The position numbers were made by a program, and so were the translations under genes. Shown here one piece after another: positions 38,936 to 49,555 of a stretch of DNA of 64,000 bases. The first letter of the stretch is position 1. Every line of letters starts with the position of its first letter. Source of the DNA: Candidatus Hermodarchaeota archaeon (GTDB taxonomy: Archaea > Asgardarchaeota > Hermodarchaeia > Hermodarchaeales > Hermodarchaeaceae); the NCBI GenBank assembly GCA_016839805.1, contig JAEOTO010000031.1:160001-224000 (forward strand), written 5' to 3'. The notes beneath the pieces are model-generated. The model did no database searches. It was given only the letters and a program-made list of their open reading frames with translations, and was not told the DNA's origin.

Positions 38936-39388
38936 TTAAGTTCCGCGAACCAATGTGATCTCCATTGCTGATACGTTAGCAACGTTGCCTTCTGCAGTTT
39001 TGACCTGTTCAGTTGAGATATCGATGTTACGCACAACGAGATCAGTCATGAACCGGTTGCGAAGGACCTCGGCCACATCTACAGCGCGGCTGATAGCGCG
39101 ACCACGAGCCTTGATAACCAGTTCCTCAGGATTCCGATTGAGCTGCGTAACACAAGCAGTGATGTAGCTCATGAGGGGTTTGCTACCGACGAACACGACG
39201 CTTTCGTCGCGTCGGAACTTTGCGGGTTCAGCTTTCTTCTCAGGTTCTTTAGCAACCTTCTCAGCTTTGGGTTTCCCAGCCTTGGGTTTCTCAGCCTTGG
39301 CTTTTTCAGCCTTGGCTTCGGTTTTCGGTTTTTCAGCCTTAGTTTCTTCAGCTTTTGGAGTCTCAGCAGTGTCTGATTCTTTAGACAT
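38936..39388 (-). CDS. albA: DNA/RNA-binding protein Alba with a K/A/E/P-rich N-terminal extension
   Basis: VFVGSKPLMSY, IKARGRAISRAVDVAE, VSAMEITL. Confidence 0.95.
   Translation of the reverse strand: MSKESDTAETPKAEETKAEKPKTEAKAEKAKAEKPKAGKPKAEKVAKEPEKKAEPAKFRRDESVVFVGSKPLMSYITACVTQLNRNPEELVIKARGRAISRAVDVAEVLRNRFMTDLVVRNIDISTEQVKTAEGNVANVSAMEITLVRGT
39215..39360 (-). repeat. Degenerate 15-bp (KAEKP-like) coding repeats in the alba 5' end
   Basis: Repeated TTTCTCAGC(C/T)TTGG-like units. Confidence 0.7.
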
Positions 39389-41995: not shown

Positions 41996-43216
41996 ATGCG
42001 AAAATTGCGTCAAGGGTTGGTGGCAACATTTTTCTTTCTCCTAGCGCTACTTGCAGTGCTACCTCCCCAAACAGCGGCCTTTCAATACATCCATTACTGG
42101 CGGGTAAACTTTACCGGTTTTTTAGAAGTGTCTGGAAACCAATCACTTCCAATTCTGCCCTATTGGAATTACATTGGCAATCAATCCTGGCAAACATGTG
42201 AGCAAATTCATTTCGACATGACTCATAACAATGATACTATCGAGCCCATTGAGATCGTAATCGACCTTGATGGAAACCCTCAGCTGGTTTTGAATCTTAC
42301 AACACCCCTAGAACCGAATGACACACTAACGTGGCACGATGAATGGTTAATCTCCGTGTCGAACCTACGACCGCGTCTGCCCCAGATTTACATTGATCAA
42401 TCCGGAAACATCAGTGAAATCGAAGAACTAATGGAACCCGAGGAGTATGATCGTTACACACGTGGGACAACGTTATGGAAGACGTGGAACCAGTCTTTAG
42501 TAAACACATCACGAGACATTCGAAATAGCCTTCCCATTGAATTGCATAACAACACACTTGCACTTGTTCATGCTGCAATCCGATGGATTCAAACCAACAT
42601 CCAGCGATCTATTGGATTATCCGAACCTCAATATCCAGAAGAAATCATAGTCAGTAAAATCGGAGACTGTGATGATCAATCCAATTTATTGATCACATTT
42701 TTACGAATTTTTAATATTCCGTGTTATCTAATGACAGGCCATTGGTTTCAAGAAGGAGCTAGTACTAATGGCTACCTCTGGGGATCAGTAGAAGAGAACG
42801 CCTTTTTCTATGTTAATTGGGAGAATGCAGTTGGTCATGGATGGGCGATGGTGTATGTTCCTCCATGGGGTTGGTTACCCTTTGATCTAACAGCAGCGGG
42901 TTATGGAGTTGACCCAGCTAACACCTATTATGAATCGCTATATGCTTCGAGCTTACCATTTGTTACCTTGTGGCAGGTCGTTGTTACTGATTACATTCAA
43001 GAACGTCGAACAGAGAAACTTGATTTATTCACCTTTGAACTTCACCGTATTGAATACGAAGAATGGATTTCACTTGGTTCAATTCCAATCGCTGACTTTC
43101 AATACTTCTTGACTAATGTTGCCACCTTAGTTGCACTAATAGGCACTCTGGCTTTGTTCGGTTGTATTATTGGAATTGCCCTTCGGCGTCGAGGGAAGGA
43201 GGCACCTAAACAATGA
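41996..43216 (+). CDS. Membrane-anchored transglutaminase-like protein
   Basis: GDCDDQS, HGW, WLPFDLT triad; signal peptide and C-terminal TM. Confidence 0.88.
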   Translation: MRKLRQGLVATFFFLLALLAVLPPQTAAFQYIHYWRVNFTGFLEVSGNQSLPILPYWNYIGNQSWQTCEQIHFDMTHNNDTIEPIEIVIDLDGNPQLVLNLTTPLEPNDTLTWHDEWLISVSNLRPRLPQIYIDQSGNISEIEELMEPEEYDRYTRGTTLWKTWNQSLVNTSRDIRNSLPIELHNNTLALVHAAIRWIQTNIQRSIGLSEPQYPEEIIVSKIGDCDDQSNLLITFLRIFNIPCYLMTGHWFQEGASTNGYLWGSVEENAFFYVNWENAVGHGWAMVYVPPWGWLPFDLTAAGYGVDPANTYYESLYASSLPFVTLWQVVVTDYIQERRTEKLDLFTFELHRIEYEEWISLGSIPIADFQYFLTNVATLVALIGTLALFGCIIGIALRRRGKEAPKQ

Positions 43217-44988
43217 TTTCCCGGGCTGCCCCTAACGAATTGTATTCTGAATACGTCTTTGATGGAAAAAAAACAGCGCTAGAATTCTGGGGGCATATCC
43301 CCCATAACATGAAAGAAGCTGTGACCCTTAGTAAATCCATAATCAAAGCGTATCGGGAAAAACACCAACCACTCTTCACACCTGAACGACTTAATGATTT
43401 ACTCAAAGCCATTAAAACATTTCATCAAAAACACAAAGCCTTAACTCCAAACGCCAAGCAAAATCTTACCCTTCTTGAAGAGCAATATGGTGCAGTCGAA
43501 GCAGGTCACCAACCAGCCCTCTTAGGTGGTCCAGGATTCGTTATTAACAAACTTGCCGCCATTGCACGCTTAGCGGCGTTCCAACATACAGCACCCATCA
43601 TGTTTGTGGGTGATCATGATCACGAGCAAAAAGAATTGACAGTAATTCATCTACCAAGTCCAGGTCCCCGAGGACTTATCTTTACATACCGAGTACCACG
43701 CGAGTATCAACTATCACCCTTACATGTACTTCCCCTCCCACCTCTTACCTGGTTGAAACAGGTAGTTGAAAAAATCACATCAACATATCATGAAATGGTT
43801 GCAGATTCTGGAAGGGAAAAGAAAGACATCTACGAAACCAGAATCCAACGTCTCCGTCAATTACTCGTAAACACGTATAATCAAGCCAACACGTTTTCTG
43901 AATGGACCGTGTTGATTTGGATTCAAATCATCAACATGTCCCAAGATGTTGGGATTCTCTTTCAGGTGTTCTCAGACCCAAGGATTCGCGATCTAATGCT
44001 CCCTGCCTTTGAATATCTTTTAGCGTCCTCAAATCGCACTCAACTAATCCAAGCGCTAAATCAAAGTGCAACCAAGCTTGAAAACCTTGGTTATCAACCC
44101 GGAATAGGCATACGCACAGAGAATTATGTACCCTTCCATCTCGAATGTCTGACCCAAGGCTGTCATCGAACCCGTCTTGACCCACATCTTACTGATTATT
44201 CGACAAGCAGTACTATTGAAATCTCAGCTAACTGTCCTAAGTGTAATACGATTCATACTCTAGAATTGAAAGCCAGTTCACCTGATCTTTCACCCTGGAA
44301 GGACTTTTTATCACCACGAGTAGATACTAGAGCCTTTCTCGTACAAAGCTATACACCTGTAATTCTTCATTGTGGTGGAGCCGGAGAAACAGATTACCAC
44401 GCCCAGGTTTCACCTGCACTTAAGGCCATAAAGAGTATTGCACCCATTTTCTTCCGCTATACAAGGCTGTATTATGGAAACCCATGGACACACCGCCAAA
44501 GTCTGAAACTTTCCCAAGAAAATCTAAGCCCGTTAGACCTTAGTGAACTTCAACGCTATTCCTCTGCAATCATCACAGGATATAAGGAAGAAAATGTGGG
44601 AGTCATCCAATCGTTATTTGCAGCAAGTAATGAACACATCACAAAAACGGCTACCCACCTGATTCAGGTTGAATCACAAATGGAGAAGAAACGAATGGAC
44701 ACAATTATTTTACAGCGCGAAGCGTCAGAACCAACTATCAAAAAAGAGCTCCAAACAGAAATTGGTGCACTAACCCGTAATCGCCAGTTAATACAAACCT
44801 ATCTTTCGCAAATGTTTGGTCGCTATTCCCCTGAACGGCTTGGTCAAGAAGTGAGTTTTGCATGGATTGACTTTGCTTTATCCCTCAGCCCAGAGCACCT
44901 TTTCTCCAGACTTTTTACTCACTACCAGCCACTTACGCCGTCAGCTGCAACTTTCTACTTACCTGAAAACCCAACTAAGCTTGAATAA
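43213..44988 (+). CDS. bshC: Bacillithiol cysteine-adding enzyme BshC-like
   Basis: AGHQPALLGGP..INK, DHD..E, LSP.V..R, GGAGE..Y.AQ; next to bshA. Confidence 0.85.
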   Translation: MISRAAPNELYSEYVFDGKKTALEFWGHIPHNMKEAVTLSKSIIKAYREKHQPLFTPERLNDLLKAIKTFHQKHKALTPNAKQNLTLLEEQYGAVEAGHQPALLGGPGFVINKLAAIARLAAFQHTAPIMFVGDHDHEQKELTVIHLPSPGPRGLIFTYRVPREYQLSPLHVLPLPPLTWLKQVVEKITSTYHEMVADSGREKKDIYETRIQRLRQLLVNTYNQANTFSEWTVLIWIQIINMSQDVGILFQVFSDPRIRDLMLPAFEYLLASSNRTQLIQALNQSATKLENLGYQPGIGIRTENYVPFHLECLTQGCHRTRLDPHLTDYSTSSTIEISANCPKCNTIHTLELKASSPDLSPWKDFLSPRVDTRAFLVQSYTPVILHCGGAGETDYHAQVSPALKAIKSIAPIFFRYTRLYYGNPWTHRQSLKLSQENLSPLDLSELQRYSSAIITGYKEENVGVIQSLFAASNEHITKTATHLIQVESQMEKKRMDTIILQREASEPTIKKELQTEIGALTRNRQLIQTYLSQMFGRYSPERLGQEVSFAWIDFALSLSPEHLFSRLFTHYQPLTPSAATFYLPENPTKLE

Positions 44989-46081
44989 CTTTTTCATAAA
45001 TCGCTTCGTATTGAGGTAAGACTTTCTCAACCGTATGATGCTTAATGATATGTTGCCGAGCCTGTTTACCTAAGCGACCCGCAAGAGTGGAATCGGTTAG
45101 GATGGCATATAGCTTTTCAGCCATTGCATCAATATCACCAAAGGGTACGAGAAGCCCGTTTTCGCCATCTTCGATAATCTCAGGTATTCCCCCAACAGCT
45201 GTTGAAACGACAGGTAATCCACAACTCATAGCCTCAAGAAGCGACAAGGGTGCACCTTCTAACTCAGAGCTTAGTGCAAAAGCATCGGCACATCGAAGAT
45301 ACTGATGGACATCTCGTTTGAATCCAGGACATTGAATACGGTTATTCAATTCATATTTTCGGATTAACCGATCGACATCATGTCGGGTTGGACCATCTCC
45401 AAGCAAGAGCAAGTCGACATCAGGCACCTCGGAAGCAATTTGGGCAAAAGCTGTCACTAAATCGCTCACTCGTTTCACTGGACGAAAATTCGAGACGTGA
45501 ATTAATTGTTGTTTCCCATTTCTCATCTGAAATTCACAGGCATTAGGTTTAAACAATTCAGTATCTGTGAAATTAGTAATAGGTTCAATTGAACAGCGAA
45601 CTCCCAAGGTCTGTTCTGCAGTTTGACAGATATGGTTCGTGACACAAGTTACAGCATGCGCAGCCTCTACTGCAAACCGTGTGGCAGGTTGATAAGCTGG
45701 ATCCGCACCCAGCGTATGAACATCAGAACCATGTAAGGTCACAACATAAGGAACTCCCGTCATTTGATTTGCCATAAACGCAGACAAGGCATGGGGAATA
45801 GCGTAATGCACATGCAAAATGTCCAGCTGATGCTTTTGAGCCACCTGAGCCATTCGAGAAGCAAGTGCAACCGTATAAGGGGGATATCGGAAAAGTGGAT
45901 ACTCCAGAACATCAACAAGATCCACTTTGACATTTTCGTAGACCCCTTCTTGTAACTCAAATGGCACTTCGTAAGTAATAAAGCGCACTTCATGGTCGCG
46001 TTTTGCTAATTCAACGCCTAAACGGGTGGCTAGAAGGCCTGAACCACCCACACCGGGATAACACGTGATGCCAATTCGCAT
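44975..46081 (-). CDS. bshA: N-acetyl-alpha-D-glucosaminyl L-malate synthase BshA
   Basis: MRIGITCYP..GGSG, LHVHYAIPHA, TLHGSD, HVSNFRPVKR, LEAMSCG. Confidence 0.95.
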   Translation of the reverse strand: MRIGITCYPGVGGSGLLATRLGVELAKRDHEVRFITYEVPFELQEGVYENVKVDLVDVLEYPLFRYPPYTVALASRMAQVAQKHQLDILHVHYAIPHALSAFMANQMTGVPYVVTLHGSDVHTLGADPAYQPATRFAVEAAHAVTCVTNHICQTAEQTLGVRCSIEPITNFTDTELFKPNACEFQMRNGKQQLIHVSNFRPVKRVSDLVTAFAQIASEVPDVDLLLLGDGPTRHDVDRLIRKYELNNRIQCPGFKRDVHQYLRCADAFALSSELEGAPLSLLEAMSCGLPVVSTAVGGIPEIIEDGENGLLVPFGDIDAMAEKLYAILTDSTLAGRLGKQARQHIIKHHTVEKVLPQYEAIYEKVIQA

Positions 46082-46091
46082 CGTTAATCCC

Positions 46092-46260
46092 TTGGCATCC
46101 CGTCTTACCCGCCCTTATGTCTTCCGTTGTCCGAAACTTACCCAGACCTGTGCCAGAATGGTGTTCGGTTCCTGCATCATCGACGGGCACTGCCCCACCA
46201 GGGGGCTGTCACCTCCCACCTCACGACAGGCGTTTAGAGTCTCCGCCCAACTGTCGGCGA
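46092..46260 (-). ncRNA. Unidentified structured RNA / 5' leader of bshA
   Basis: About 60% GC by hand count vs 30-35% in the adjacent spacer; several stems; TTTTTATAT box about 25 nt upstream. Confidence 0.55.
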
Positions 46261-46364
46261 CACCAATGTGTCCAAGAAGGATATAAAAACTCCACCTAAT
46301 GAAACTCCCTTTCACGAAGACAGTTAGATGGTAATACGGACTAGTTGTCAATAAATGGACCTAG

Positions 46365-46420
46365 AAAAACCACGAAATATCACCTATTAACACCAATTAA
46401 AATGAAATTTCGTGATTTTT
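46365..46420. promoter_or_regulatory. 18-bp inverted repeat between divergent bshA and bshB
   Basis: AAAAACCACGAAATATCA ... TGAAATTTCGTGATTTTT (16/18 complementary). Confidence 0.45.
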
Positions 46421-46467
46421 CCTTCAGCAAGGAAAACTTTTGGTGCTAAAAGAGCTTACTTACGGAT

Positions 46468-47142
46468 ATGCCTCTTTCCGCTTCAAATCGATTACTAATT
46501 GTTGGAGCCCATCCAGACGATGAAACCTTTGGTTGTGGAGGAACTATTGCTCTTGAAACTGTTCGAGGAACCAGCGTTACCGTTTGTTGTCTAACAGGAA
46601 CACCTCAGCGCCATAAGGAGTTACGAGCTGCGTGTAAAATACTCGGTGCATCGGTAATTGCTTATAAGGGTACGGATTTGGAGCTCATTGTTTCTGACGT
46701 CACAAAGGTGCTTATCCCCATCATCCAAGAGCTCAAACCTCAAGTGATTATCTCACACAGTGGCAATGATTATCATGATGACCACCGAGTTGTGTACCAG
46801 GCACTTTTCCGTTCAGCTGAATGGGCAGGTCATGCAACACAATATAAAACAAAAGCATGGCGACCTCACCGCCTACTAAGCATGGAAATTAATACACTAT
46901 TAGCCGCACCAACCTTACTTGTCGATGTATCCGATTACATTGATTTGAAAATGCGAGCAATCAATCGCTATCAAAGCCAATTGAAAAAAACCAAACAATA
47001 CTATCATGAATTTAATTTACAAAAGGCAAAATTACGAGGACTTCAGGGTGGCTGTGAATATGCAGAAGCATTTCAGGAGGTCCTTATGCCCATTCATGGA
47101 CCCTTCTATTCACCTTCTCCGACAGTAAAAAGCATCTTTTAG
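46468..47142 (+). CDS. bshB: PIG-L family deacetylase, BshB-like
   Basis: GAHPDDE, DYHDDH, K..AI..YQSQ, YAEAF; in the bsh cluster. Confidence 0.8.
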   Translation: MPLSASNRLLIVGAHPDDETFGCGGTIALETVRGTSVTVCCLTGTPQRHKELRAACKILGASVIAYKGTDLELIVSDVTKVLIPIIQELKPQVIISHSGNDYHDDHRVVYQALFRSAEWAGHATQYKTKAWRPHRLLSMEINTLLAAPTLLVDVSDYIDLKMRAINRYQSQLKKTKQYYHEFNLQKAKLRGLQGGCEYAEAFQEVLMPIHGPFYSPSPTVKSIF

Positions 47143-48355: not shown

Positions 48356-49555
48356 TTATTTCATGAGTTTATCAGGACTTGGAAGCTGTTTAACCTGTTG
48401 TGGTTCTTGTCGGAAGCGCACACCGGGCTCTGTTTCTAATCGCTCAGTGTAAAGGACTTCGCCTTCCACTGTTACATCTCGTTCGATGTAGATTTCACGC
48501 CCATACAGGTTTTTCACCCGAGCCCGTTCCTCCACACGGATGGAATCACCATGAAAGGATTCGCCCCGAGCTTTTTCTTCAACCGTAATTGCATGACCCT
48601 CAACAAAGCCTGAAACTTCACCACCTCTTCCAATTCGAAAGACTTTACTGGATTTTATATGAGTAGCACTAATTGATCCACCGACATCAATCCTTGGTGA
48701 TTCAATTTTTTGACCCGCTCGTAAAGAACCACCCACGTCAATTTCTTCACCCACAAGCAGATCCGTGCCAACAGTAACCGCACCACCAACATCTAATTTC
48801 TCAGACAAAACTAGTGACTGTTCCGCTTTGACAGCGCCTCCAACATCAATTAACTTACCAGTGGCATTTCCTGTGAATTTTGCGGCACCACCAACATTCA
48901 ACATTTCAAAGCTCACATCACCTTCGCCTTTGAATGAGCCACCAACATCAATTGACACAACTTTGGAACCAGGACCAACGACTACAGCTCCACCAACATC
49001 AATACTCCCGATTTCGATTGCGCCTTCCGCTTTAAAGGAACCACCTACATCGACTTTGCCAATGTTGCCCGTGTTGCACTTGACAGCGCCTCCAACCCTG
49101 AGCGTTTTCGCATCAATCTTTTCACCAATTTTCACTGCACCCCCCACATTGATGTCTTCAACTGTTGCATTTCCACGAACCGAGAGAGCCCCACCAATCG
49201 AGACCTTAGTGGCTAGCAAATCCTTACCAACAGAAAGAGCCGCGCCAATATCAAACTTATTAGCGGTAGCCGAACCTTCAACCTCGAGTTTTCCACGTCG
49301 AACATTTACAGATCGATCAATCGAAAGATTTCCACGGATTTCAGTTGTGTTTCGTCCATCAATTTCCAAATAATTAGCCCTAAGGGACCCTTCAATTCTA
49401 GAATCCCCTCGAATCAACATTTCTCCCTCAACAACTATTTCATCACCCTTCTCTGGGAGAATGATTTGACAATTCTTGATTTCCACATCGCCTTTGACGT
49501 GACCTAGCTTGAGTTCGCGTTCATTTTCAAATCGGAGTTTTTCACCCATTTTCAT
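48356..49555 (-). CDS. Bactofilin-like (polymer-forming) beta-helix repeat protein
   Basis: Long run of ~17-aa (D/N)VGG(A/S) repeats. Confidence 0.75.
   Translation of the reverse strand: MKMGEKLRFENERELKLGHVKGDVEIKNCQIILPEKGDEIVVEGEMLIRGDSRIEGSLRANYLEIDGRNTTEIRGNLSIDRSVNVRRGKLEVEGSATANKFDIGAALSVGKDLLATKVSIGGALSVRGNATVEDINVGGAVKIGEKIDAKTLRVGGAVKCNTGNIGKVDVGGSFKAEGAIEIGSIDVGGAVVVGPGSKVVSIDVGGSFKGEGDVSFEMLNVGGAAKFTGNATGKLIDVGGAVKAEQSLVLSEKLDVGGAVTVGTDLLVGEEIDVGGSLRAGQKIESPRIDVGGSISATHIKSSKVFRIGRGGEVSGFVEGHAITVEEKARGESFHGDSIRVEERARVKNLYGREIYIERDVTVEGEVLYTERLETEPGVRFRQEPQQVKQLPSPDKLMK

Follow-up and report, generated by a model that had tools for sequence, protein, structure and literature searches.

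The bshA–bshB spacer and its insertion

The window, i.e. the whole analyzed stretch of 64,000 nucleotides, contains bshC-like, bshA and bshB-like genes at 43213–47142, which represent a bacillithiol-type cluster. The convergent bshC-like gene scores below the cut-off of its model. Asgard homologues of bshA and bshC have already been reported (PMC7278568). The divergent linkage of bshA and bshB is conserved throughout the family and is also seen in a more distantly related Asgard family. Elsewhere in the window are an Alba protein whose N-terminus is extended by about 60 residues rich in lysine and glutamate (38936–39388) and a 399-residue protein with many VGG repeats that is likely a β-solenoid (48356–49555). 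No tRNA is detected by ARAGORN in the 64-kb window. The genes flanking the spacer and the landmarks within it are as follows.

44975–46081, minus strand: bshA glycosyltransferase gene, neighbour (TIGR03999, 398 bits; cut-off 273.7)
46082–46123, minus strand: native bshA upstream region, conserved in 16 element-free loci
46124–46125, minus strand: right GG core; the scaffold ends CGG, a sharp boundary in about 60 copies
46345–46392, minus strand: left end of the element (identical at 23/30 positions with that of a tnpB element, L039)
46393–46394, minus strand: left GG core dinucleotide and insertion point, defined by the empty alleles L145 and L002
46364–46421, no strand assigned: imperfect inverted repeat, AT-rich, with the left junction at its centre (73% over 60 nt by self-BLAST)
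46468–47142, plus strand: divergent bshB-like PIG-L deacetylase gene, neighbour (TIGR04001, 95 bits, below cut-off; PF02585)

Bases 46392–46124 of the minus strand are a 269-bp insertion between two GG cores in the bshA–bshB spacer. The ENA contig L145 is 97.6–98.4% identical to the window in both genes and lacks the element; its spacer measures 116 bp compared with 386 bp in the window. Deletion of 46392–46124 leaves a spacer of 117 bp that is collinear with L145 and L002, and in both of these empty alleles a single GG is joined to the base at 46123. All 15 bshA loci examined in the same family have a short spacer to the divergent bshB and no element. A 185-bp element starting from the GGG at 46308 was rejected as the outer boundary since it would leave a spacer of 203 bp instead of 116–117 bp. 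This GGG may be the start of an inner module.

The first-pass annotation had described 46082–46290 as a structured leader of bshA. The true unit is the insertion 46392–46124 plus host DNA (46123–46082). Because the insertion ends at 46124, the last 42 nt of the proposed leader, including the 3' arm of its long stem, are host DNA. At about −40 to −31 relative to the ATG, this native upstream region has a conserved motif, probably the native bshA promoter. The described contrast in GC content is real (60% over 46261–46092), with the adjacent spacer (46467–46290) at 36% and not at 30–35%.

The GGG-type motif of the left flank is found in the empty alleles and in most other copies, whereas the window copy has TGG. 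As the flank reads ATTGG here and AAGGG in the empty alleles, the motif has decayed in the window copy. One arm of the inverted repeat is host DNA and the other lies inside the element; the left arm is partly present in the empty alleles. Window and L145 differ at 14/62 positions beside the junctions, at 1/56 in the rest of the spacer and at 19/867 coding positions (Fisher p 0.0006, for a region that was picked after looking), the total outside the 62 bp being 20/923. This pattern fits an occupied allele that arrived with short flanks from another lineage and hints at homing. It is a single case, and L145 may just as well be the strain with the imported tract.

Metagenomes searched for the flank as an exact pattern gave no match. 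In an independent assembly (SRR14699983), the contig is broken within the scaffold, some 110 nt before the bshA start, which is what a repeat would be expected to cause. Projection of the empty sites of other copies onto the source genome (G000) yields plausible collinear sites, with junctions too diverged for reliable scoring of the GG.

The omega-RNA scaffold, its relatives and its fold

The right part of the insertion is a structured module with the following features.

46124–46261, minus strand: TnpB omega RNA (reRNA) scaffold and transposon right end, 138 nt, ends CAACGG
46239–46261, minus strand: 5' hairpin (helix 96.7% paired)
46171–46230, minus strand: central domain (compensatory changes in all three helices)
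46131–46168, minus strand: 3' stem-loop, CCGA/UCGG plus a variable upper hairpin (97.5% and 89% paired, compensatory changes)

The scaffold (46261–46124) corresponds to the former 3' coding tail of a tnpB gene, and one frame still reads VADSWAETLNAC. A candidate small peptide in 46115–46351 was rejected as it is this fossil tnpB tail, with stops breaking the frame in many orphan copies. Three further scaffold copies are present in the same genome (78–82% identity), all of them the 3' ends of tnpB genes. Relative genomes contain up to a dozen copies each and roughly 80 were collected. About half of these end a tnpB gene, with products scoring 293–318 bits against NF040570 (cut-off 100), and otherwise the homologues adjoin unrelated genes, not thiol genes. 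The copies end sharply at CAACGG and the sequence beyond is unrelated. In loci of other Asgard families (L048 and L042) the order is tnpA–tnpB–scaffold and the serine-recombinase TnpA of L048 passes the IS607 transposase model NF033518 (160 versus 110 bits).

The cognate TnpBs of the source genome (C22, C10 and C42) keep the RuvC D-E-D motifs. Their scores fall slightly short of the IS607_TnpB cut-off (334 and 278 versus 350), a point against the IS607 reading. This genome has 13 TnpB-type zinc-finger matches over the cut-off; a Y1 transposase was looked for in it and none was found. Searches with PF00239, NF033518 and the cognate protein detected no IS607 transposase in the source genome and 18 further genomes of the family (metagenome-assembled, 72–91% complete). 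The sole trace in these 19 genomes is one broken fragment in G017. As the genomes are incomplete and repeats assemble badly, the absence of a transposase is not proven.

The same 19 genomes are rich in IS607-type tnpB and orphan omega-RNA elements. The C42 tnpB frame (L121:1592–2791) lacks the expected start, and its upstream bases suggest a 5' frameshift. The C22 tnpB element (L122; C22:27000–30200 in G000) and two other TnpB-like genes lie among tRNA genes. In several cases, orphans included, the same site is occupied in different species (L051/L090/L094, L067/L070, L036/L039, L044/L084 and L087/L123). The flanks at such shared sites have diverged (67–73% for L051/L090/L094); many insertions are therefore old or re-homed to the same site.

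An alignment of 60 copies yields a consensus fold with a pseudoknot in which 95.2% of the cells are paired and 19 of the 34 pairs show compensatory changes. None of 500 shuffles reaches the fold score, which lies far above slid controls; the fold was derived from this same alignment, and the relatedness of the copies inflates the shuffle test. Conservation partly reflects ancestry, since the helices lie partly in former coding sequence and the relatives are not independent.

The pseudoknot connects the loop of the 5' hairpin (46251–46248) with 46129–46126 just before the guide. It is 97.9% paired and a G-C pair is swapped to C-G in five sequences. The central domain is composed of a CCUG/CAGG stem, a K-turn signature, a second stem (46220–46215/46187–46182) and a GCCC/GGGC hairpin as a cap. 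A K-turn consensus comprises a C-stem, a 3-nt bulge ending in U, tandem G·A/A·G pairs and a non-canonical stem. Here, the signature consists of GA at 46222–46221 and of a GAU bulge and GA at 46181–46177. Its core is kept in 58/60 sequences, as a sequence signature alone. An L7Ae-family gene is present in the genome at C9:38974–39249. In the literature on an L7Ae-bound K-turn in a natural TnpB guide, only a kink-turn in a modified stem of an engineered omega RNA was found (PMC13201667).

Judged by its origin, sharp guide boundary, multi-stem fold and pseudoknot, the sequence 46124–46261 is a TnpB omega RNA (reRNA) scaffold. Very probably, the whole region is a non-autonomous, protein-less element of the IS607 family that carries this scaffold and was inserted at a GG core in the bshA–bshB spacer.

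Predicted guide and promoter, and possible activity

Two further features concern the guide and the promoter.

46104–46123, minus strand: predicted guide, about 17–20 nt, host DNA upstream of bshA (collinear flank)
46281–46308, minus strand: putative internal promoter module resembling a second left end, GGG followed by a TATA box at 46289–46281 (22/34 match to the orphan L032)

In the empty alleles, a GGG is followed by a match to the guide of 18/20 with the first 12 nt perfect. Because the guide flank follows GGG there, TnpB acting in trans could cut the empty alleles and the element could be copied in. In the genome itself, no other target was found that combines GGG with more than 8 matched nt.

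The similarity of the left end to that of L039 is the best in both strands of the window. This end is located at −131, in line with the left ends of other orphan copies at about −130 to −145. The left-end motif begins after GGG and is common to orphans, tnpB-only and tnpA–tnpB elements, and its consensus is also present in the tnpA loci L133–L136. A pooled left-end weight matrix does not rank the junction at 46394 and gives a weak score of 5.8 at 46308, the sixth in the window. The module 46281–46308 aligns with the left end and promoter of the orphan L032, again as the best match in the window. With two left-end-like modules, the internal history of the element is ambiguous.

The TATA-like box TTTTTATAT, already described in the first-pass annotation, is located at 46289–46281 on the minus strand. 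Among the orphans, 26/33 have a TATA-like hexamer between −35 and −28 relative to the start of the scaffold, compared with 6/39 of the tnpB-linked copies. This difference suggests that expression with a defined 5' end is under selection. The orphans sharing this position have otherwise different upstream sequences. In autonomous IS607 elements, the left end has a TATA box upstream of tnpA with the same spacing. The module is the predicted omega-RNA promoter, with a start near 46261, and its TATA box probably serves the orphan RNA itself.

By analogy with IS607/IS605 systems, the element would have arisen by deletion of tnpA and tnpB. The TATA box would drive an RNA of roughly 155–160 nt that consists of the scaffold and the flank-derived guide. 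TnpB from other copies (C22, C10 and C42) would load this RNA and cut element-free bshA alleles, and repair from the occupied allele would retain or spread the element. If bshA expression is affected at all, this would be a side effect of the extra upstream promoter and not ligand sensing. The window copy is fairly likely to be active at present.

The same element may instead have lost its function and be a decaying remnant, its RNA being neither made nor loaded any more. This is possible, if on the unlikely side, and compatible with the identity given above. It would be in line with the decayed GGG at the left junction, a scaffold only about 80% identical to the nearest copy, the two guide mismatches to the empty alleles and the failure to find a transposase. 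Furthermore, orphans keep slightly fewer pairs (92.7% versus 97.4%), so the window copy could be a decaying relic. However, this copy keeps 32/34 pairs together with the pseudoknot and the K-turn, and its canonical TATA box is at a position common to independent orphan lineages.

A more far-reaching version of the homing scheme starts from a loss of the IS607 transposase in this Asgard family. Orphan omega-RNA cassettes equipped with a promoter would then persist and spread purely by RNA-guided homing with borrowed TnpB, the bshA copy being one such event, and the K-turn would let L7Ae join the TnpB complex. As a whole, this proposal is speculative and rather doubtful. If true, it would amount to a gene drive without a protein of its own that passes between lineages along with short co-converted flanks.

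Exaptation, in which the transposon promoter and the structured RNA serve as a strain-specific 5' leader of bshA (e.g. via binding of TnpB or L7Ae), is improbable. The promoter is co-oriented with bshA, and the K-turn signature and the L7Ae-family gene would suit such a role. A sigma-70 promoter/terminator scan found nothing, thus no terminator-like site before the ATG, using bacterial-type models that are ill-suited to archaea. Against exaptation, the insertion is known from a single strain and nothing points to its fixation, the upstream motif of the host is still intact and the same architecture is present at dozens of unrelated sites.

The original proposal was a riboswitch or another cis-regulatory RNA for thiol synthesis that controls bshA by alternative CUGUC/GACAG pairings. 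Its sequence motifs are present on the minus strand: CUGUC (46229–46225) with both GACAG partners (46255–46251 and 46210–46206), the GCCCC/GGGGC hairpin and two copies of GGGUAAG, the second of which is inside the host DNA 46123–46082. The position upstream of bshA, the TATA box, the high GC content and the lack of an Rfam family also agree with a leader. At the gathering score, Rfam 15 has no match anywhere in the window, and on the element there is none even up to E=10 (glmS, SRP, RNase P and C/D sRNA included); the tnpB-linked scaffold copies have no Rfam match either. A resemblance to glmS and the ideas of RNase P, SRP and SECIS were dropped when the link to tnpB appeared and Rfam gave no support.

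The pairings themselves behave differently from those of a switch. In the 60 homologues they are 85% and 69% paired with no covariation above shuffles, and their bases are used by other, covarying helices of the omega-RNA fold. Among dinucleotide shuffles, 47% contain a 5-mer that finds a perfect partner on either side, so the switch is at chance level. Single-sequence folding ranks the region no better than shuffles (z=+0.71; scaffold alone z=+1.5). In the long stem, the complementarity of 46196–46182 with 46104–46094 does end 12 nt before the ATG; it joins the element to a host flank that is also present in element-free relatives. The element is missing before bshA in every relative examined, the 98%-identical strain included, and the homologues lie near unrelated genes or at tnpB 3' ends. 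Thus, the riboswitch reading is unsupported and has next to no likelihood. The alternative offered with it, an independent non-coding RNA with its own TATA box, is supported; the class is not new but known, a stand-alone TnpB omega RNA on a non-autonomous IS607 element.

Equally implausible is a domesticated CRISPR-like guide against a virus or another locus, for which the own promoter and the many orphan guides per genome could be cited: the guide is collinear host flank, which refutes this for the window copy by the empty-site alignment, no second target turned up in the genome, and the matches to GGG plus 12 nt in IMG/VR reach no more than 16/20, which is the level of chance.

Relation to known systems

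Removal of this false riboswitch candidate illustrates the way in which such candidates come about: Asgard intergenic regions commonly contain orphan TnpB guide RNAs, which are GC-rich, follow a TATA box and are missing from Rfam. The locus is a complete test case with an occupied allele, a near-identical empty allele and a cognate TnpB in the same genome. Additionally, the alignment and the covarying structure define an archaeal IS607 omega-RNA family that had not been modelled.

The closest characterized systems are from the IS607 family. ISXfa1 has a 144-nt scaffold, a 17-nt guide and a GGG TAM (10.1101/2023.08.09.552727) and CboIStron has a GG core (10.1101/2023.11.20.567912); in these systems, the CGG scaffold end protects the occupied site from self-cleavage (10.1101/2023.08.09.552727, 10.1101/2023.11.20.567912). 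The window copy shares with them the GG core at both junctions, the GGG-type motif of the empty site (TGG in the occupied one), the guide derived from the right flank and a scaffold of ~140 nt that overlaps the tnpB 3' end, ends CGG and places a 5'-loop pseudoknot beside the guide. In contrast to ISXfa1 and CboIStron, it is archaeal, lacks tnpA, tnpB and an intron, has its own TATA promoter and a K-turn signature in the scaffold, and comes from a host family in which no transposase was found.

Stand-alone omega RNAs that act in trans are documented, with a role that is called unknown (PMC10691335), and PATE-like protein-less IS605 elements of Geobacillus carry omega RNAs (PMC10055086). Like the window copy, these are protein-less, keep the ends and the guide RNA and need TnpB in trans. 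They belong to IS200/IS605 with a Y1 transposase or are linked to IscB, whereas the window copy has IS607 ends and an archaeal promoter.

The sotRNAs are non-coding RNAs of archaeal IS1341-type tnpB genes (PMC4615843). They resemble the present RNA as archaeal non-coding RNAs at the tnpB 3' end, a likeness of position with no Rfam match for the tnpB-linked copies, and differ in that they overlap an intact tnpB gene. With the glmS ribozyme and metabolite riboswitches, the element shares only its position before a gene that uses an amino sugar and a superficial motif resemblance; unlike them, it has no Rfam match at E=10, is not conserved with bshA and adopts a different covarying fold. The element at bshA adds one more example to a known class of elements and is not a thiol-sensing RNA.
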